From NCBI GenBank assembly GCA_964408485.1, contig CAYOZJ010000001.1, positions 92,366 through 156,365 on the forward strand: a stretch of DNA of 64,000 nucleotides. Direction: 5' to 3'. Each line of letters starts with the position of its first letter. Position 1 is the first letter of the stretch. Below are positions 1,660-61,255 of this stretch, piece by piece. Below the pieces are notes generated by a model. That model had not been told where the DNA came from, did not search any database, and saw nothing but the letters and a program-made list of their open reading frames with translations. A program made the position numbers and the translations under genes. The stretch comes from an uncultured Gammaproteobacteria bacterium (GTDB lineage Bacteria; Patescibacteriota; Microgenomatia; Levybacterales; UBA12049).

Positions 1660-2028
1660 ATGTCGGCTGATATACCCGTAAATTGTTTTAGCTACGCAGT
1701 TGAGGAGGCACTACGTGAGGGAAAGGAAGAATTTATTGCTCCGGATGATATCGTGTATGTTCTTGGCAATCGCTTTGTACTTGTACAAAGCATAAATGAA
1801 GCAACTACGGCAGTTGCTATTGAATATCCCGATACCGCAGGGGATCCAAGAAGAGTTAAAGCGATTCATGCCGCAGCGATTGTACCGGGAACAACACTTG
1901 TTACAGAAAGACAACACGCTGGAGCAGATGTATGCCCTCCCAAGCCAATTGCTGAAGCAATGAAAGGATATCGATTTATTCGATATTATAGACCACGAGA
2001 ACTTCCACCGGTTAGCCCAAGAAGATAA
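1660..2028 (+). CDS. Hypothetical protein, 122 aa. A Cys9...His72 arrangement hints at a papain/NlpC-like fold, unconfirmed.
   Basis: ORF preceded by a TTTACA-17-TATACT promoter 9 nt from the ATG. No confident family match by eye. Confidence 0.35.
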   Translation: MSADIPVNCFSYAVEEALREGKEEFIAPDDIVYVLGNRFVLVQSINEATTAVAIEYPDTAGDPRRVKAIHAAAIVPGTTLVTERQHAGADVCPPKPIAEAMKGYRFIRYYRPRELPPVSPRR

Positions 2029-17343: not shown

Positions 17344-17405
17344 GTAGTATCTAGGATATCTAATTTTGAGGGTATTTGCAAGAAATGATAATTATAATGG
17401 AGGTT

Positions 17406-17720
17406 TTATACATTGGGCTCGTGCACAATTCTTATACGACGTCCATCCTGATCAGTACCAGATGCTTCCTGTTTGTCAAATGATGTTCGCCTATTACCAA
17501 GTCCATTCCCTCTTGCATATCCTCTTCCATCAGTGTCACGGACTGAGATCTTATCTAACATTTCTGTCCCACTAGTAACCTGTCCTACTTTTTTACCATC
17601 AATATAAAGAGTTGTTTTTAATTGAGGATACACAGAAACATGATCCAATCGAGGATAACCCCATGGACGAGCGTTGTGTCCTGAAGCAACTTTTCTATTT
17701 GGCATATTTCTTTCTACCAT
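17406..17720 (-). CDS. Small basic Gly/Arg-rich hypothetical protein
   Basis: 104-aa ORF, disordered composition. Confidence 0.3.
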   Translation of the reverse strand: MVERNMPNRKVASGHNARPWGYPRLDHVSVYPQLKTTLYIDGKKVGQVTSGTEMLDKISVRDTDGRGYARGNGLGNRRTSFDKQEASGTDQDGRRIRIVHEPNV

Positions 17721-17877
17721 GGAGATATTTTAGCACTATATACCCTTTTGTGCTTGACTAAATTTTGACTGGATCCTGACTGTAATTCTGTAAGGAACTT
17801 ACTAGATAGCTTGAGCGGAGGCGAAAACATATACAGCAGAATTTCCTGGTATCACGAAGTGATAAATTCTACTAATT

Positions 17878-26159: not shown

Positions 26160-26444
26160 ATGGCAGCAGACAGAGAGACAGATATACAACAGGCGGTTGA
26201 GCAATGGCTTATTGAAACAAGACGTCTCAGAGCTCCAAAAGCTCCAGGGAAAACACACGAGGCTTGGTTAGCTCCAACAGAAACTGTAGTAGAGCCACCA
26301 CAAGCAACTCCCCCAGTTGGTGCTCCCTCACTTCACCCAGACAGATATTTTAGAGATTCCACCGGTCTAAGACATATAGACAATCCGTCTCCGCGAGGAT
26401 CAAGTCGGGTGAGAGGTCCCCGCGAACGTGGCAACAGAAGCTAA
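26160..26444 (+). CDS. Small basic/Pro-rich disordered hypothetical protein
   Basis: 94-aa ORF with its own consensus promoter. Composition is locally GC-richer. Confidence 0.35.
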   Translation: MAADRETDIQQAVEQWLIETRRLRAPKAPGKTHEAWLAPTETVVEPPQATPPVGAPSLHPDRYFRDSTGLRHIDNPSPRGSSRVRGPRERGNRS

Positions 26445-44967: not shown

Positions 44968-45555
44968 ATGAATATACTACAAATTTTAGGAATCTCTGCG
45001 GGAATTATTAGCACAATCGGAGGAATCCCCTACATCATAGATATTTTCAAACGAAAAACAAAACCCGAGCGCGCAACATGGTTTATTTGGTCAATACTTG
45101 GAGGAATTGCATTTTTCTCGCAACTTGCAAAAGGAGCAACAAACTCTTTATGGATTACAGGATTTGAATCTGTTGGCCAGGTTATTATTTTCATATTGTC
45201 CCTGCGATATGGATACGGAAAATTTAAGAAAAAAGATGGCATTACCCTTTTTATTGCACTGATAGGACTTATTATTTGGTTTGTAACCAAAGAAGCAGTA
45301 TACGCGCTCTACATTATTATGACAATAGATTTTATTGGATCTATTTTAACTATTCAAAAGTCATACCAGGATCCAGAAAGTGAAACACTCAGCACATGGG
45401 TGCTATCAACTATCGCAGGATTTCTATCAATTCTATCTGTAGGGAAATTAAATATTTTTCTCTTAAGTTATCCTGTATTTATATTTGTCATAAATGGGAC
45501 AATAGCTCTGGCAGTTATTTTTGGAAGGAAAAATCAAAAAAAAATTAAGAAGTAG
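44968..45555 (+). CDS. Integral membrane protein, hypothetical (~6 TM)
   Basis: Hydrophobic helices throughout. Confidence 0.45.
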   Translation: MNILQILGISAGIISTIGGIPYIIDIFKRKTKPERATWFIWSILGGIAFFSQLAKGATNSLWITGFESVGQVIIFILSLRYGYGKFKKKDGITLFIALIGLIIWFVTKEAVYALYIIMTIDFIGSILTIQKSYQDPESETLSTWVLSTIAGFLSILSVGKLNIFLLSYPVFIFVINGTIALAVIFGRKNQKKIKK

Positions 45556-45783
45556 ACTTATCTTGTTTGTGTGTTCTAATTAATCCTTCTTGTATAAGTG
45601 ATGCTATTACTTCTTGTGCTTGAGCCTGAGTTATTCCACCTAAAACTTGTGTATTAGGATCTATTATTTTTCTCATTCTCCTCTCCACTTTTCTCCTACC
45701 CCTTTCTGGTTTTGGTGGAAACTGAACAACTTCTCCAGTCATAAAGGTATTATAGGATAAATTTTCTCTTGTGTCGAGCAGGT

Positions 45784-48037: not shown

Positions 48038-48226
48038 GAAGAGTGAATAAATGACTCAGGGGGATTCCTCGCAAACTTGTCGAGGAAGGGGTGAAATCCC
48101 CCGAGGAATGAGTGAACGATGAAAGCACAAAACGAGGCTTGGCAGGAGGCTTTGGTACTTTCGCCGGAACGAAAGTACGGAAAAAGAAAATTATTTAAGT
48201 CTTTATATCCTTCGACTCTGCTCAGG

Positions 48227-48640
48227 ATGACAAAATATACTGTTTTAGATATAATCATACCCATGACAATTGATGAAATTAGACATGCATTTGGGGGCAG
48301 GTTGGTTGGGACAAAGATTCTGAAAGAAAATGTTTGCGAGGTTGTTGCCCTTCTTCCCCAGGATTTACAGGAATATGTAACAGAATATGTGTGGTTTGTG
48401 GGATCTATGGAGGATGCATGGGGATACACCTTTACCGGCAATGATCTAGCAGACCAACATTTAATTTTCTTGGGCGACGATCTACTCCGAGAGGACAAAG
48501 ATCAAATTCACTGGTCTATTGCTCATGAAATAGGACATGTTGTCCTAGGACACAAAAATAATATTTTTGTAAAACAAAGTAAGGTTGCTATTGGTCATCA
48601 GGAAGAAGAAGCAGATGAATTTGCCAGTAAGTACGCGTAA
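48227..48640 (+). CDS. ImmA/IrrE family (DUF955/COG2856) zinc metallopeptidase-like protein
   Basis: HEIGHVVLGH followed by E..EADEFASKYA matches HExxH...E..A..FA. Start trimmed to the ATG inside the upstream repeat copy (MTKYTVLD...). Confidence 0.55.
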   Translation: MTKYTVLDIIIPMTIDEIRHAFGGRLVGTKILKENVCEVVALLPQDLQEYVTEYVWFVGSMEDAWGYTFTGNDLADQHLIFLGDDLLREDKDQIHWSIAHEIGHVVLGHKNNIFVKQSKVAIGHQEEEADEFASKYA

Positions 48641-49561: not shown

Positions 49562-49849
49562 ATGACCAAATCACAGCAATATTTTCAAGATATGGTGGAA
49601 AATCATAAAGATCTTTTTGATGCATTTAAAGTGGTTCATGACCAATATGTGCTAGACGCTAAAAAATACCAACAGCAATTAAACGAACTCGGAGAAGACG
49701 TATTAAAAATTATTCGTCGTTATGAAAATATGCTCTGCTCAGAGTCAGAGGGTGGAAAATTTGGTAAATTTAGCAGTAAAACAGCAGATAAATTCTGGGA
49801 ATATGTGCGTGGATTTCTTCCAAAAATTGATTCAGTAGGTCTTAAGTAA
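49562..49849 (+). CDS. Hypothetical protein, 95 aa
   Basis: ORF only. Confidence 0.3.
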   Translation: MTKSQQYFQDMVENHKDLFDAFKVVHDQYVLDAKKYQQQLNELGEDVLKIIRRYENMLCSESEGGKFGKFSSKTADKFWEYVRGFLPKIDSVGLK

Positions 49850-50155
49850 ATATATTGTTCGAATGCAGTGAGAACTAAAACTTCTCGCTTTGCTCGAAGA
49901 ATAAATATTTTACTTTTGTACAGATTGGCTTTTCTCCAACTGAACCGGAGTCGGGGTTGGAGTAATTGAAGATAAAACAGTCAGATATTTTTGATTAAAA
50001 AGCATACCTGCATAAAACGCAACTCCTAAGAAAGCCAAAACAAGAAGAAGGGCTAGCATTTTAGAAAACGCAGTAACTTTGGTAAGTGATTTAGGAAGTT
50101 TGACCATACATCTACTTTCCTACAAAAACCAGAAAAAATCAAGTCGATTTCGTGC

Positions 50156-50184
50156 TTGACAGATAATAAAGGGCTCTCTATAAT
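50156..50184 (+). promoter_or_regulatory. Sigma70 promoter TTGACA-17-TATAAT, 7 nt upstream of the ATG at 50192
   Basis: Perfect consensus hexamers. The ORF-track TTG start is actually the -35 box. Confidence 0.6.
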
Positions 50185-50191
50185 TTTGGCC

Positions 50192-50485
50192 ATGAGACAC
50201 ACTTTAGAAGTAAGCGAGCCAGGAGGAGCAAGAATCTGGACAAATGAAGGCACACCAATCACTTATGGTGCAGAAACTCGCGACGGAGTGGTCGGAGACG
50301 AAGTCCCCCTAAGAACCGTTGGAGTTGCTTCTGCAAGAATCCATGGAAGCTTAGAGTATAAAAGGATTGCTCGGCCACATTTTGGTGAAGAACCTACAAG
50401 AACACGAAATAGAGCTGGTCATTATGTTACTCAAACGCTGGCAGATGCAATCGTTGCAGCTCATAATACAAGAAAAAACTCATAA
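50192..50485 (+). CDS. Small basic hypothetical protein, paralogue A
   Basis: MRHTLEVSEPGG...TYGAETRDGVV...VGVASARIHGSL, homologous to the downstream gene. Confidence 0.4.
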   Translation: MRHTLEVSEPGGARIWTNEGTPITYGAETRDGVVGDEVPLRTVGVASARIHGSLEYKRIARPHFGEEPTRTRNRAGHYVTQTLADAIVAAHNTRKNS

Positions 50486-50515
50486 CACTTCTAAAAAAAT
50501 CATCCAATTTCGTGC

Positions 50516-50545
50516 TTGACAAGTAATATAGGTCTAATTTATAAT
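50516..50545 (+). promoter_or_regulatory. Duplicated sigma70 promoter TTGACA-18-TATAAT, 6 nt upstream of the ATG at 50552
   Basis: The upstream context ATTTCGTGCTTGACA is shared with the promoter at 50156. Confidence 0.6.
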
Positions 50546-50551
50546 TTGACT

Positions 50552-50788
50552 ATGGCTGACAGAATTCGCTCAAATTCAGGTTCAGAAATTATAAGAGACA
50601 CTGATTCTTACACGTATGGTGCAGTCTCAGAAAGGGTAGTTATTTTTGGTTTTTCACAAAGGGATGTAGCAAGTGCTCGTGCGAGAGTTAGAAAAGAGCT
50701 AGATGAAGATAAGGCTATTGATGAGCAGGCACAAATTCTCGCTAGACGCGGGTTACGTATGATGGAAGAAAGAAATCAATGGAATTAG
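50552..50788 (+). CDS. Small basic hypothetical protein, paralogue B
   Basis: MADRIRSNSGSE...TYGAVSERVVI...DVASARARVRKEL aligns with paralogue A. Confidence 0.4.
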   Translation: MADRIRSNSGSEIIRDTDSYTYGAVSERVVIFGFSQRDVASARARVRKELDEDKAIDEQAQILARRGLRMMEERNQWN

Positions 50789-50790
50789 TT

Positions 50791-51126
50791 TCATAACCCC
50801 AAATTTGAATAGCTATTCATCTGATTTTGTACTCCCTGCAAAAATGCTCCCATTGTCCACAATGTTAGGATAACTGCCAGAATAGTCAAAACTAAAGCTA
50901 TCCATCCAATTCTTTTTGCTTTTGAATCACTGGATCTAAGATATTTCCATGTCCAGATAAGTCCAAGTGGCGGAAGAAAAAAACTAACAAAGTAAATCCA
51001 GACCTGCTTCCCTGTCCCAATAGTTGGCGTGTGATTTGTCAATTTTGCACCACAATGACTACAAAATGTATCATCAGGAGCAGTTATGCTTCCGCAATTT
51101 GGACAGATAAATTGAGAATTATCCAT
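50791..51126 (-). CDS. Zinc-ribbon domain membrane protein
   Basis: CPNCG...CSHCG zinc ribbon followed by two TM helices. Confidence 0.5.
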   Translation of the reverse strand: MDNSQFICPNCGSITAPDDTFCSHCGAKLTNHTPTIGTGKQVWIYFVSFFLPPLGLIWTWKYLRSSDSKAKRIGWIALVLTILAVILTLWTMGAFLQGVQNQMNSYSNLGL

Positions 51127-51244: not shown

Positions 51245-52645
51245 TTATTTTTTATTTACCCTCGGACCATCTTTACCGTCCATAACATCAAAGCCTAAGT
51301 CGCTTATTTTCTTTCTCAGCTCGTCAGATGCCTTATAATCCCCTGCTTTTCGAAAAGTCTCTCTTTCTTTGAGTAAGTCCTCAACATTCTTTGGTATCTT
51401 TACGCTTTCCGCTTTACGCTTTCCGCTTGCGAGGCCTAAGCCTAAAATGCGATCCATTTCCAAAAGCGTTGCCTTTTTTTCGCCAGGATTAATAATGCGC
51501 TTTGTCATATCCCACACAATACTCAATGCTTTTGCTGTATTTAAGTCGTCGTTAAGAGCTTCCATAAATTGCTCTATCCAAAAAAGATTTGGTGAAGCAG
51601 TAGGATCATTGGTAATATGAGATCGTAATTTCTTAAGACTACTTGCTGCAGCGTCCAAACTTTCCCAGGTAAAATTCATTTCTTGTCTATAATGCGTTTG
51701 TAAATATAAATAACGAAGGCTGAGTGGGTCATACCCTTTTGCAACAACATCCTCCACTGTATAAAAATTACCCAATGACTTACTCATTTTCTGACCTCCA
51801 ACAACCAGAAAATTATGGTGCACCCAGTAATTAACAAATTTCTTGCCCGTTGCAGCCTCAGATTGCGCTATTTCATTTGAATGATGAATTGCAATATGAT
51901 CGATTCCACCTGTGTGAATATCGAGCGTTGGCCCAAGCGCTTTCATGGACATTGCACTACATTCTATATGCCACCCTGGGAAACCCACTCCCCACGGACT
52001 ATCCCATTCCATTTGACGCTTTCCTTGCCCTGAGCCTGCCGAAGGGTCATCTTTGGGAGAAAACTTCCAAAGAGCAAAATCACTAGCATTTTTTTTGCCT
52101 TCAATAAAATCTACTCGTGCTCCTTTTTGCAATTCATCTGGATTTTGCCTGGACAATGCAAAGTAATTTTTAAATTTTGATGTATCAAAATAAATTCCAT
52201 CAGACAAACGGTATGTATATCCTTTCTCTTCTAATTCCTGCACTAATTTAATTTGTTCTTTAATATAATCTGTTGCATGCATGAGATCTTTAGGTAAATC
52301 TATATTAAGCAACTTGCATGAATCTTTAAACTGCTCTTCAAACATTTTTGCAACATCCCACACAGACTTACCAAATTTCTTCGCACCTTTTTCCATTTTA
52401 TCCTCCCCTGTGTCACTATCACTTACTAAGTGACCAACATCGGTAATATTCATTACATGGTGTACTGAATACCCATTTGCTTCCAAAACCCGAATAAGGA
52501 TATCGTCCCAAACGTAACGCCTCATATGCCCAATATGCTGATAGTCATAGACTGTTGGCCCGCAAGAATACATAGCCACTTGTAGTGGCTTTAGTGACTT
52601 AAATTCCTCAACGCTTCTTGTTAATGTGTTATAAATTCGTAACAT
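51245..52645 (-). CDS. cysS: Cysteine--tRNA ligase
   Basis: HIGH (HIGHMRRYV) and KMSKS motifs, and Zn-binding Cys residues. Class I aaRS. Confidence 0.95.
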   Translation of the reverse strand: MLRIYNTLTRSVEEFKSLKPLQVAMYSCGPTVYDYQHIGHMRRYVWDDILIRVLEANGYSVHHVMNITDVGHLVSDSDTGEDKMEKGAKKFGKSVWDVAKMFEEQFKDSCKLLNIDLPKDLMHATDYIKEQIKLVQELEEKGYTYRLSDGIYFDTSKFKNYFALSRQNPDELQKGARVDFIEGKKNASDFALWKFSPKDDPSAGSGQGKRQMEWDSPWGVGFPGWHIECSAMSMKALGPTLDIHTGGIDHIAIHHSNEIAQSEAATGKKFVNYWVHHNFLVVGGQKMSKSLGNFYTVEDVVAKGYDPLSLRYLYLQTHYRQEMNFTWESLDAAASSLKKLRSHITNDPTASPNLFWIEQFMEALNDDLNTAKALSIVWDMTKRIINPGEKKATLLEMDRILGLGLASGKRKAESVKIPKNVEDLLKERETFRKAGDYKASDELRKKISDLGFDVMDGKDGPRVNKK

Positions 52646-54994: not shown

Positions 54995-55182
54995 GAGGAG
55001 TATTTTAGTATTATTGTTCGAGCTTGTCGAGAACTTATTAGGAGAAAAACCGATATCGAATGATACTTGGCCACATCCACCGTATGTTCGCACTTAGCTT
55101 TTCAATACTATTCGTATACGCCTCGTGCCAACATTATTGGTGGATTATGTACTATTTATACTTTAGCTATGGAACATAAAAA

Positions 55183-55207
55183 AACTCCCTTTCAGGAGTT
55201 CTTTAAT
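55183..55207 (-). terminator. Rho-independent terminator on the minus strand
   Basis: Minus-strand hairpin AACTCC-TGAAAG-GGAGTT followed by TTTTTTT, downstream of the 55221..56168 gene. Confidence 0.55.
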
Positions 55208-55220
55208 CCAATCTTAAATC

Positions 55221-56168
55221 TTATCTAATAAATCCAGGTGAAGTTGGTTTTCTTCTTGATCTTCCTACACCATTTCCACCATTATCTGCTACAGGTTCAT
55301 CTGTACCAACCATATGATCATACAGACCCAAAACTCTTACAGTCTGCTCTACAATATTTGCCTCTCGAGGCTGTGTATTTCTTCCATTAGATACCCTTGG
55401 ATCTCGAGGAGTTAAAGGTTGAGATGCATCTCGTTGTGCTGGCTGTCTATCCCCATTTCTTGCTGCTCTTACAACCTCTTCCACTGTCTGCCTACTAGGT
55501 GCACCTGTAAACTGTTCTACTGCCGATCCCTTCACTCTTTCATGGGTATTTACTATTTGATGGGCAAGGGCTGCTGTTGCTTTATTCGCAAGATATGTTT
55601 TTGCAAATCTCCATGGATGTACCTTACCCTTTGCATCAACTGCAGCATCTGCTGCTGCTCGCAAGCTGGATTCTGCTTCAATTTGCGCACGCTCTGCATC
55701 AGACAAGGCTGCTTGTTCTGCGTGCATTCGTTGTCCAGCAACGTCTGCAACAGCTCTTGGATGAATACCATGTCGGAAAATAGCTCCCTGTGTGGCGTCA
55801 CTGTGTGCACCAAGTGTTTTAGCCCATCCCTCCACTTGTTCTGCTCGCTCTGCAACTTCTCCTGCTACATCAAATAGCATTTCTTCTACCCCTTCTACTC
55901 CTCTATCACGAACTGTTCTTACTAATCCACCAACTAATGCTCCAAAGAAATTCTCTCTTTGTGGAACATATGACTCTGGTGCTTGTACAGGTTCTACTGC
56001 TCGTTGCTGTGGTTGTGGCTGTCTTGGTGCTCTTCCACCTCTTACTGAAGGCATATCACTTGCTTCAACACCAGGATATACTGGATCTTGTTGTCTTTCT
56101 GGTCTTGCAAGTGGAACTCGTGGTGCTCCCTTTGCTCTACTTCTATCTCTTTGTTCTGCTTTTCCCAT
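55221..56168 (-). CDS. Ala/Arg/Glu/Gln-rich hypothetical protein, 315 aa, compositionally atypical for this genome
   Basis: Long ORF driven by a perfect consensus promoter; the antisense plus-strand ORFs are Cys-rich junk. Confidence 0.5.
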   Translation of the reverse strand: MGKAEQRDRSRAKGAPRVPLARPERQQDPVYPGVEASDMPSVRGGRAPRQPQPQQRAVEPVQAPESYVPQRENFFGALVGGLVRTVRDRGVEGVEEMLFDVAGEVAERAEQVEGWAKTLGAHSDATQGAIFRHGIHPRAVADVAGQRMHAEQAALSDAERAQIEAESSLRAAADAAVDAKGKVHPWRFAKTYLANKATAALAHQIVNTHERVKGSAVEQFTGAPSRQTVEEVVRAARNGDRQPAQRDASQPLTPRDPRVSNGRNTQPREANIVEQTVRVLGLYDHMVGTDEPVADNGGNGVGRSRRKPTSPGFIR

Positions 56169-56180
56169 ATTATTGTTGTC

Positions 56181-56209
56181 ATTATAAATATACTATATTA
56201 AGTTGTCAA
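56181..56209 (-). promoter_or_regulatory. Perfect sigma70 promoter TTGACA-17-TATAAT on the minus strand, 12 nt upstream of the ATG at 56168
   Basis: -35 is the reverse complement of 56204-56209; -10 is the reverse complement of 56181-56186. Confidence 0.6.
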
Positions 56210-56350
56210 TAGGGTATTTTTATCTTCTTTATATTTGATATTGTAAGAGAATGATATATTTATGCAGTCTATACACTCTTTTATTAAAAATCACTATTTA
56301 GCCCTATAACCTTCAGTTATGAGATAATTTCTAAATTCCACTTTCCCCTC

Positions 56351-56379
56351 TTGACAAGACCGTACTACTGCTATTATTA
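56351..56379 (+). promoter_or_regulatory. Sigma70 promoter TTGACA-17-TTATTA, ~9 nt upstream of the ATG at 56389. Divergent partner of the minus-strand promoter.
   Basis: Consensus -35 with an AT-rich -10. Confidence 0.5.
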
Positions 56380-56388
56380 TGCGGGTAT

Positions 56389-56805
56389 ATGTCAATCGCA
56401 GTAAAACCAGGTACATCGGCTCGAATAAGAAGAGGGAGAGGAATCACTATTCCTACTGATATTAGTATTTCAGTTGAAGGTATTAAAACAACTGCGGTAG
56501 AACCATCTACTCAGACTGCTTCAGAACCTCGAAAAGGAAGAGCTGCAAAGCGCCTTGATTTAGCTTCTTTGGATCCGCAGATCTCAGTGGGACTTGTTGG
56601 TCATAGAGAAACATATCCAGCAGGTGTATTAAATCGTAGAAAAGCTACTGATAGTCCTGTGGCAAGGGAACCTCGCCAAAACGAAGAACCTCGTGTAGAC
56701 AAGGTAGTAACACCAAAAAGAAAACATGGAACACCAGGTACAGATTTGGGTGATGTAAAACTTCCTGATTGGGTTTTGAGAGAAGCTCATTTGCCACGTT
56801 CTTAA
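56389..56805 (+). CDS. Small basic disordered hypothetical protein, 138 aa
   Basis: Arg/Lys/Pro/Thr-rich ORF with its own promoter. Confidence 0.4.
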   Translation: MSIAVKPGTSARIRRGRGITIPTDISISVEGIKTTAVEPSTQTASEPRKGRAAKRLDLASLDPQISVGLVGHRETYPAGVLNRRKATDSPVAREPRQNEEPRVDKVVTPKRKHGTPGTDLGDVKLPDWVLREAHLPRS

Positions 56806-56831
56806 TTCATTTTCAGAATCATTGACTATAC

Positions 56832-57437
56832 TTATACTTCGCTTCTTCCTTCCATTGCACGTTGTAATGTAACTTCATCTGCGTACTCTAAATCTGCACC
56901 TACTGGCAAACCTCGACCTATACGAGTAATTCGCAGTTCGTGGTTCATAGTTCGTAGTTGTTTGGAGATATACATTGCCGTTGCTTCCCCTTCCATCGTT
57001 GGATTGGTTGCTAAGATAACTTCCTTGACCTCGTCATTATCCTTAAGCCTTTCAAAAAGCTTTCCTACATATATCTCATCTGGACCTAAATTATTTAATG
57101 GATCAATTCTGCCATGAAGCACGTGATAGATTCCCCTGTATTTGCCTGATTTTTCTAACGCCAAGACATCTAATGGCTGCTCAACAACGCAAATAGTACT
57201 GTGATCCCGTTGATTATCACTACAAATTGAGCAAGGGTCTGTCTCGTCAATGGACATACAGATAGAGCAAAGCTTGGTACCCGTTTTAAGACCCGTTAGC
57301 GCATTGGCAAAATTATCGAGCTCGGGTTGGGGTACATGAAGCAGATAAAACGTAAGACGCTGAGCTGATTTTGGCCCTACACCGGGTAATTTTTCAAAAG
57401 ACTCAATAAGAGACTGAACAGCTTTGGGTATACGCAT
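56832..57437 (-). CDS. recR: Recombination protein RecR
   Basis: HhH (LPGVGPKSAQRL), C4 zinc finger (C..C...C..C) and Toprim domain. Confidence 0.92.
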   Translation of the reverse strand: MRIPKAVQSLIESFEKLPGVGPKSAQRLTFYLLHVPQPELDNFANALTGLKTGTKLCSICMSIDETDPCSICSDNQRDHSTICVVEQPLDVLALEKSGKYRGIYHVLHGRIDPLNNLGPDEIYVGKLFERLKDNDEVKEVILATNPTMEGEATAMYISKQLRTMNHELRITRIGRGLPVGADLEYADEVTLQRAMEGRSEV

Positions 57438-60682: not shown

Positions 60683-60994
60683 TTAGGTTCTCGGGGAATT
60701 AGGTCTTTGTCTTGAGCCAGAAGTTCGTCTTTTTGGTCTTGCTGCATCATATCCCCTAGCAATAGCCGCATCTACAGCAGCAACATCAAATGGTTGACCA
60801 GCATCTTGATATGCGGCCTCTGCTGCATATCGTGCTTCCCAAAGGCGCTTTGAACTTTCAACTGCTTCCTGACCCGCTCTCCGAGCAGCAGGCGTATTTC
60901 TTATCCCAACCTTGTTAAATCTTCTATGCCATCTTTCTGAAGCTTCCGCAGCTTCCGTGAGTCTTTCTAATGCGCCTTCAACCATAGAATGCAC
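60683..60994 (-). CDS. Ala/Arg-rich small hypothetical protein, 103 aa
   Basis: ORF in an operon-like array downstream of ybeY. Confidence 0.35.
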   Translation of the reverse strand: MHSMVEGALERLTEAAEASERWHRRFNKVGIRNTPAARRAGQEAVESSKRLWEARYAAEAAYQDAGQPFDVAAVDAAIARGYDAARPKRRTSGSRQRPNSPRT

Positions 60995-61039: not shown

Positions 61040-61255
61040 TTAATGAAGAGTAGCATTTCTCGCCCGAGCACGTGCCTGATGTACTCTACTATGTGCAACT
61101 TCGACGGGAACACCTTCTCTTTCCACGTTCGCAAATGCACTATGAAATGTTATCTTTGCTAAAGAATGACCAGGTCCTTTCGGTTTCCAGCCTACTGCTG
61201 CATTTTCTAATTTTCCCAATGCCTCTTCCTGTTCGGGACTTAGTTCAAAATTCAT
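61040..61255 (-). CDS. Small hypothetical protein, 71 aa
   Basis: ORF only. Confidence 0.3.
   Translation of the reverse strand: MNFELSPEQEEALGKLENAAVGWKPKGPGHSLAKITFHSAFANVEREGVPVEVAHSRVHQARARARNATLH

Follow-up and report, generated by a model that had tools for sequence, protein, structure and literature searches.

Two small genes, each behind a consensus promoter

We describe a pair of small genes in a 64,000-nucleotide stretch of bacterial DNA (contig CAYOZJ010000001.1, positions 92,366 to 156,365; hereafter the window, in whose coordinates all positions are given). The two genes stand in tandem on the plus strand: gene 1 (50192-50485, +) encodes a protein of 97 amino acids, p97, and gene 2 (50552-50788, +) a protein of 78, p78, both of them arginine-rich orphans. 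The sizes, which an earlier note on this DNA had given approximately, are exact when counted from the ATGs; the gene calls of NCBI and Logan have the same starts and lengths, and the ATG-to-ATG distance is exactly 360 nt. The window has a low GC content (~38%) and carries the housekeeping genes cysS, recR, nadE, a nadD-like gene and tRNA-Cys. The nearest relatives of its CysS (60-70% identity) are in metagenome-assembled genomes labelled Patescibacteria, Paceibacterota and Levyibacteriota, plus records with evidently unreliable labels, followed by Gottesmanbacteria at ~52%. Because of these CysS matches and the housekeeping genes, we take the window to be part of the chromosome of a bacterium of the Patescibacteria (Candidate Phyla Radiation, CPR). 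For comparison we used 80 loci around cysS from other genomes, the closest CysS among the genomes compared being 70% identical, and three of these loci (L002, L003 and L005) provided the context of the insertion site described below.

Both genes follow promoters that match the sigma70/SigA-type consensus TTGACA/TATAAT at 12 of 12 positions and that, to judge by this match, are housekeeping promoters of that type. In P1, upstream of gene 1, the -35 box lies at 50156-50161 (+) and the -10 box at 50179-50184 (+), with a spacer of 17 nt; in P2, 360 nt further on, the boxes lie at 50516-50521 (+) and 50540-50545 (+), with a spacer of 18 nt. These coordinates, read directly from the DNA, bear out the two consensus promoters and the spacers reported earlier, and the arrangement is rare: TTGACA-N16-19-TATAAT occurs three times in the 64 kb against an expectation of 0.12, none of 100 shuffled sequences reached three, and the other loci that we fetched contain six occurrences in total. 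Each -35 box closes an exact 15-nt repeat, ATTTCGTGCTTGACA (50147-50161 and 50507-50521, both +), present in the window only at 50147 and 50507. The shared block that the earlier note placed at 50151 and 50511 is thus real, and its exact part begins 4 nt earlier. In a local alignment, 44 of 55 aligned positions upstream of the two genes are identical (~80%); the identity spans an A-tract, nine of nine bases directly 5' of the -35 box, and part of the spacer. The A-tract of P1 (50133-50138, +), which precedes the predicted start of gene 1 by ~54-59 nt, may be a UP-like element, and its counterpart upstream of P2 (50493-50499, +) falls inside the block aligned between the copies. From this resemblance we take it as certain that a promoter was duplicated.

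The ATGs follow almost immediately. Between the -10 box and the start codon lie TTTGGCC in gene 1 (7 nt, ATG at 50192) and TTGACT in gene 2 (6 nt, ATG at 50552), as the earlier note had seen, and neither interval contains a Shine-Dalgarno site. In gene 1 the predicted transcription start coincides with the A of the ATG. The TTG codons at 50156 and 50516, from which an open reading frame (ORF) track starts the two genes, are the first three bases of the TTGACA -35 boxes, again as noted earlier.

Predicted leaderless starts across the window and related loci

A -10 box so close to the start codon is common in this genome. We searched upstream of the first ATG of 60 long ORFs of the window for boxes of the form TAnnnT that agree with TATAAT in 4 or more of the 6 positions. 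In 11 genes such a box stops exactly 6 nt short of the ATG and in 5 it stops 7 nt short; taking distances of 5-8 nt together, 19 of the 60 genes, about a third, have one, where 0.87 genes would be expected per spacing. Shine-Dalgarno-like 4-mers are near background among the same ORFs. The 6-nt peak recurs in related Patescibacteria loci (5/18 genes in L002, 5/22 in L005 and 5/25 in L007; also in L006, L009 and L017) and is absent from two non-CPR controls, Desulfatitalea and Ignavibacteria. Most of the leaderless-type promoters of the window have a TGn-extended -10 box (for example tGCTATACT) and a weak -35 box, unlike P1 and P2, whose -35 boxes are perfect.

Leaderless expression of genes 1 and 2 from sigma70-type promoters is well supported by this geometry. 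Because the same spacing of -10 box and ATG is strongly enriched across the window and its relatives, the leaderless layout is the norm of the host and no peculiarity of the locus; what sets the two genes apart is the perfect pair of -35 and -10 boxes. The leaderless-type start described in the earlier note is borne out by the ideal geometry and the lack of a Shine-Dalgarno site. Our literature search found no description of leaderless starts in CPR bacteria or Patescibacteria, which does not show that none exists.

A probable duplication of a promoter-plus-gene cassette

Our preferred interpretation, to which we give a probability of about 0.6 as a whole, is that these are two adjacent, independently transcribed small protein genes that are expressed from leaderless mRNAs and arose by duplication of a cassette. 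Each gene would carry one copy of a maximal-consensus promoter composed of the A-tract, the conserved 9-nt block, TTGACA, a spacer of 17 or 18 nt, and TATAAT. RNA polymerase would start at the A of the ATG, as the geometry suggests, and yield an mRNA with no 5' leader, and the ribosome would bind the 5'-terminal AUG directly, with no need of a Shine-Dalgarno site. On a read-through transcript the AUG of gene 2 would be internal and unmarked, while its own promoter would make that AUG 5'-terminal. Since gene 2 lacks a ribosome-binding site and we found no terminator-like hairpin between it and gene 1, its efficient translation would depend on transcripts of its own promoter. If the promoter doubles in this genome as the signal for translation start, then a duplicated gene would have to bring its promoter along. 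The most likely origin is a tandem duplication of a promoter-plus-gene cassette of ~360 nt inside a variable slot of the chromosome, after which the coding parts would have diverged fast and the promoter would have stayed conserved.

Several points weigh against this interpretation. The start sites and the expression of both genes are deduced from promoter geometry only. BLASTP finds no alignment of p97 with p78 at E<=100, and within the window's own ORF set phmmer pairs them at E=9.9. The promoter block is far better conserved than the coding DNA, and a separate copying of the promoter to a place before an unrelated gene would fit this too. No search returned a homologue of either protein, and neither protein has a match in Pfam, PHROGs, PADLOC, NCBIfam or the sequences of the PDB, so that any function proposed is a guess. 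The only other contig that carries the locus is identical across 3,624 nt and offers no population variation.

The first of the alternatives is that only the promoter, some 55 nt, was copied, by duplication or by gene conversion, to a place before a second, unrelated small gene, so that p97 and p78 would not be paralogues at all. The failure of BLASTP and phmmer to join the two proteins is what such an event would leave, as is a promoter that is 80% identical ahead of coding DNA that is otherwise unalignable; furthermore, the window has arginine-rich ORFs of unrelated sequence behind strong promoters elsewhere. We nonetheless find this account doubtful, for a weak resemblance runs on into the genes. 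A stretch of gene 1 that includes the codons for TYGA (CACTTATGGTGCAG, 50260-50273, +) agrees with gene 2 (CACGTATGGTGCAG, 50611-50624) in 13 of 14 nt; the match keeps the reading frame and is collinear, with a 9-nt offset relative to the ATGs. Against codon shuffles p is 0.013 for such a match anywhere and 0.002 for one that lies within +-30 nt of collinearity. A Smith-Waterman alignment of the proteins scores 36 against 23.1+-4.1 for shuffled sequences, which is weak (p ~0.01), and is likewise collinear (RI..N.G..I...TYGA...VV...R.V..A.AR). Of the 91 pairs that can be formed from comparable arginine-rich ORFs in the window, p97-p78 ranks first (z=3.3). The exact 360-nt distance between the ATGs also speaks for duplication of the whole, as does the alignment of both N-termini, in register, to one hairpin motif, which is described with the proteins below.

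Duplication of the whole promoter-plus-gene cassette is thus plausible, on statistics that are marginal. The statement of the earlier note that a cassette had been duplicated stands for the promoter and can be kept as plausible for the gene, and its description of the proteins as clearly homologous was too strong in view of the BLASTP, phmmer and Smith-Waterman results. That the promoter is better conserved than the coding DNA points to selection acting on the promoter block, to gene conversion, or to proteins that evolve very fast.

A variable slot between conserved genes

The cassette lies in a variable slot between two conserved genes. On the left is a gene for a protein of 95 amino acids (49562-49849, +), itself of leaderless layout, its ATG standing 7 nt after TTGTCC-17-TATACT, with 51-57% identity in L002, L003 and L005. 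On the right, convergent with gene 2 and adjoining cysS, is a gene for a zinc-ribbon membrane protein (50791-51126, -), with 36-52% identity in relatives; both genes are conserved beside cysS in the same three loci. We call the slot variable because 9 nt separate these flanking genes in L005 and unrelated inserts lie between them in L003, where they are ~1 kb apart and enclose a membrane-anchored protein and a 111-residue protein, and in L002, where they are ~2 kb apart and enclose two enzyme-sized ORFs. A tblastn search of the 80 loci around cysS with p97 and p78 gave no match.

Such a setting invites a second alternative, namely that the genes are accessory genes brought by a mobile element or phage, as a moron-like, toxin-antitoxin or defence-related pair, and are not native to the lineage. 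A slot that is empty in one relative and holds other cargo in two more is in keeping with this, as are the autonomous strong promoters, since promoters of that kind are typical of phage early genes. The orphan status and unusual amino acid composition of p97 and p78 would also fit, as would a gene for an ImmA/IrrE-like (M78) metalloprotease 1.5 kb away. Against it, GC3 (GC content at third codon positions) and codon usage are native, and PHROGs, PADLOC, IMG/VR and GenBank phages contain no match to either protein. We found no integrase, flanking repeats or tRNA at the slot and no terminator, and a promoter for each gene is unlike the usual toxin-antitoxin operon with its single promoter. Importation in this form is therefore unlikely, in our judgement. 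The more specific candidate of a type II toxin-antitoxin pair was rejected: there was no Pfam or PADLOC match, each gene has its own promoter, and the match of the p78 model to VapB was non-significant (E=4.7). Phage morons are autonomous units of promoter, gene and terminator inserted between conserved genes. The present genes resemble them in being small, with strong promoters of their own, between genes that are adjacent in a relative (L005), and differ from them in their chromosomal setting, in having no terminator, in their native codon usage, and in having neither phage homologues nor phage neighbours.

Coding status and translation starts

It is also conceivable that the ORFs are not translated, the promoters driving small RNAs or being relics and the open frames being accidental. 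Consistent with this are the lack of homologues and the very low confidence of the structure model of p97. Several properties make it highly unlikely. A codon-usage model built from 51 long window ORFs gives in-frame log-odds of 0.199 for p97 and 0.221 for p78, close to those of chunks of real genes (0.208+-0.083), and the other five frames of both score about zero or lower (95th percentile of off-frame chunks, -0.003), so that the signal is gene-like in one frame only. GC3 of the two genes is 0.26-0.27, against 0.285 for the genome, with GC1 and GC2 well above it. In shuffled sequence the probability that an ATG opens at least 97 codons is 0.002 and that it opens at least 78 is 0.009, a joint chance of ~2e-5 for both frames. 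Neither transcript gives a sign of structured RNA (fold z-scores of 0.10 and -0.28; no Rfam match), and the ATGs stand at the exact spacing of the leaderless genes of this genome. Because of the codon scores, GC3, the length of the open frames and the absence of an RNA-structure signal, we conclude that the ORFs are very probably coding. We also considered that the two genes could be remnants of a repeat-protein gene with a 360-nt period and rejected this, since perfect promoters and correctly spaced ATGs in both copies would be unexpected in coding relics.

Starts at the upstream TTG codons, on leadered transcripts from promoters further upstream, would give the longest ORFs (109 and 90 amino acids) and are hardly credible, given that the TTGs are the first bases of perfect -35 hexamers, that no Shine-Dalgarno site precedes them, that no comparable promoter lies upstream, and that the public gene calls use the ATGs.

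The p97 and p78 proteins

Both proteins are rich in arginine (fractions of 0.11-0.15) and poor in lysine (0.02-0.03). The earlier note called them basic and disordered. The first description fits p97, with a pI of 9.4, and not p78, with a pI of 6.3. As for disorder, a single-sequence AlphaFold model of p97 is uninformative (pLDDT 36), and that of p78 (pLDDT 73.5) is ordered in part, with a predicted beta-hairpin at residues 2-16 and a long, confidently predicted helix at residues 36-77 (pLDDT >90). Foldseek found nothing in the PDB resembling the p78 model at E<=0.001.

A homology search for what the earlier note had viewed as a family of about 90 residues left p97 and p78 as orphans in every protein library searched. 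Against 5.8 billion protein clusters each matched only itself, and IMG/VR and GenBank phages held no homologue. An exhaustive profile search of 1.84 billion representatives returned, besides p97 and p78, just two giant repeat proteins with Calx-beta or PPC repeats, which we reject as artefacts of summing over repeats (per-repeat matches of 14-25 residues, pairwise E>=0.018). Membership of the Calx-beta domain family was rejected as well: there is no Pfam match, and the profile match to P0003 adds up 13 weak matches, each 14-25 residues long, to a single hairpin of a 16-fold repeat. We record separately that residues 4-28 of p97 and 5-27 of p78 both look like the last beta-hairpin of the Calx-beta repeats (…LSNPSNATISDNSGSATIKDTD…) of a 2,883-residue repeat protein, and do so in the same register; each match is individually non-significant, and the pattern is in line with the predicted hairpin of p78.

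Two further candidates did not hold. The PGG at residues 10-12 of p97 recalls the double-glycine leader of a bacteriocin, but the leader is, by inspection only, too short and off consensus, and we noticed no C39 transporter among the neighbouring genes scanned. The N-terminal ARIRRGRGITI of p138 (56389-56805, +), a strong-promoter ORF discussed below, raised the prospect of a third paralogue, for which phmmer and Smith-Waterman comparisons gave no support. On present evidence p97 and p78 appear to be lineage-specific, cytoplasmic proteins with no known domain. Our best guess as to their role, offered with low confidence, is an accessory one, as strongly expressed binding or regulatory proteins like the products of moron-type accessory genes.

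Strong promoters and arginine-rich orphans elsewhere in the window

Genes 1 and 2 have counterparts of a kind elsewhere in the window. Eleven promoters score at least 11 of 12 against the consensus, and nine of them have an ATG at 6-12 nt; of the remaining two, one has a leader of 34 nt and the other is followed by no ORF. The ORFs behind these promoters are mostly arginine-rich orphans (p97, p78, p315, p138, p100, p71 and p65b) with high GC1 and GC2 and low GC3. Beyond genes 1 and 2, ORFs that are arginine-rich, lysine-poor and preceded by a strong promoter lie at 55221-56168 (-), 56389-56805 (+), 60683-60985 (-), 61040-61255 (-), 45545-45742 (-), 26160-26444 (+) and 1660-2028 (+). The median of R/(R+K) is 0.72 for ORFs with a promoter score of at least 11 and ~0.31 for the rest (Mann-Whitney p=0.0003). 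No Pfam domain was found in the arginine-rich ORFs with strong promoters, a search for homologues of p315 found none, and similarity among the ORFs of the set is nowhere significant, p97-p78 again being the top pair. There is a second tandem pair on the minus strand (61040-61255 and 60683-60985, 71 and 100 amino acids), in which each gene opens with an ATG 7-8 nt past the -10 box of its own 11/12 promoter, and the second promoter fills the 54-nt intergenic gap. As a separate observation, a second variable slot (55093-56832) holds a divergent pair of strong-promoter orphans, p315/p138; it is bordered by recR and the nadD-like gene, two genes that adjoin each other in L002.

One could go further and see in genes 1 and 2 one example of a lineage-specific class, consisting of fast-evolving arginine-rich orphans with maximal-strength promoters of their own and leaderless mRNAs, in variable slots between housekeeping genes of Patescibacteria. 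We consider this generalisation speculative and quite unlikely as formulated. Were it true, a promoter that alone supplied both transcription and translation start could ease the duplication, shuffling and even de novo birth of small proteins, and the arginine-rich orphans could be abundant effectors of an episymbiotic lifestyle or of conflict with phages.

Relation to known leaderless systems

As we read them, genes 1 and 2 are promoter-plus-gene units of a known architectural kind, with a layout ordinary for the lineage. The layout matches that of group C of GeneMarkS-2, exemplified by Actinobacteria and Deinococcus-Thermus, in which the first genes of operons are leaderless and the Pribnow box lies 6-8 nt from the gene start (PMC6028130, PMC3898074). 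As in that group, the -10 boxes of genes 1 and 2 end 6-7 nt before the AUG, there is no Shine-Dalgarno site, and the layout is frequent in the genome; unlike it, the host here is a low-GC member of the Patescibacteria, a lineage that the pertinent sections of those two papers do not give as an example of group C. In mycobacteria, ribosome profiling and proteomics have shown small proteins to be made from leaderless transcripts, many of them unannotated or lineage-specific (PMC4633059). Genes 1 and 2 are similar in being short ORFs with an AUG predicted at the 5' end of the transcript, and differ in forming two tandem copies with a duplicated promoter, known from sequence alone. The textbook leaderless mRNA of bacteria, that of lambda cI from PRM, begins at the A of the AUG and is translated by 70S-type initiation with no leader (PMC10491246). 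The predicted transcription start of genes 1 and 2 is likewise at the A of the AUG, but PRM is a weak, regulated promoter of a phage switch, whereas P1 and P2 are consensus promoters with no evident operator.

For annotation, the locus implies that starts chosen as those of the longest ORFs can, in this lineage, be promoter boxes, and that gene starts call for a leaderless model. Genes 1 and 2 illustrate cleanly how ~45 nt can form an expression unit complete in itself, which may explain why tandem genes in this genome have a promoter each. Metaproteomics, or the development of tools for heterologous expression in CPR bacteria, could well begin with the two promoters and their probably strongly expressed proteins.

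Further observations on promoters and neighbouring genes

Scans for similar promoters outside the locus gave little. In JGI metagenomes the pattern TTTCGTGCTTGACA-N16-19-TATAATTT had a single match (L082, 48-85, -), and IMG/VR had no match to the P1/P2 promoter pattern. The JGI match is on a 1.5-kb contig beside a gene for a DedA-like membrane protein, with an ATG 15 nt after the -10 box; we considered it as a related promoter unit and judged it a probable chance match, in view of its unrelated context and that 15-nt distance. Within the window, a -35-like box at 17750-17759 (+), GTGCTTGACT, resembles the upstream block of P1 and P2. It lies in a gap between two minus-strand genes (17344-17877), which also contains an arginine-rich ORF of 104 amino acids (17406-17720, -).

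Sharing the slot with the cassette and divergent from P1 is an uncertain ORF of 65 amino acids (49910-50107, -), with one hydrophobic helix and a codon score of 0.162; it is absent from the public gene calls, and in place of a leaderless promoter it may have a Shine-Dalgarno site, AGGA. The Logan contig has no call for the zinc-ribbon membrane gene at the right border, and the protein collection does not contain the exact sequence of its product. The metalloprotease-like gene to the left of the slot (48119-48640, +), of ImmA/IrrE type (M78, with HExxH), has weak matches to CapP, RmrA and phage metalloproteases. An 11/12 promoter (ATGACA-17-TATAAT, 48227-48255) ends 7 nt before its internal ATG at 48263, and the true start may be there (125 amino acids) rather than at 48119. 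Finally, the 3' part of cysS contains a perfect tandem duplication of 14 nt, two copies of CTTTACGCTTTCCG at 51398-51425, across which the cysS ORF stays open.

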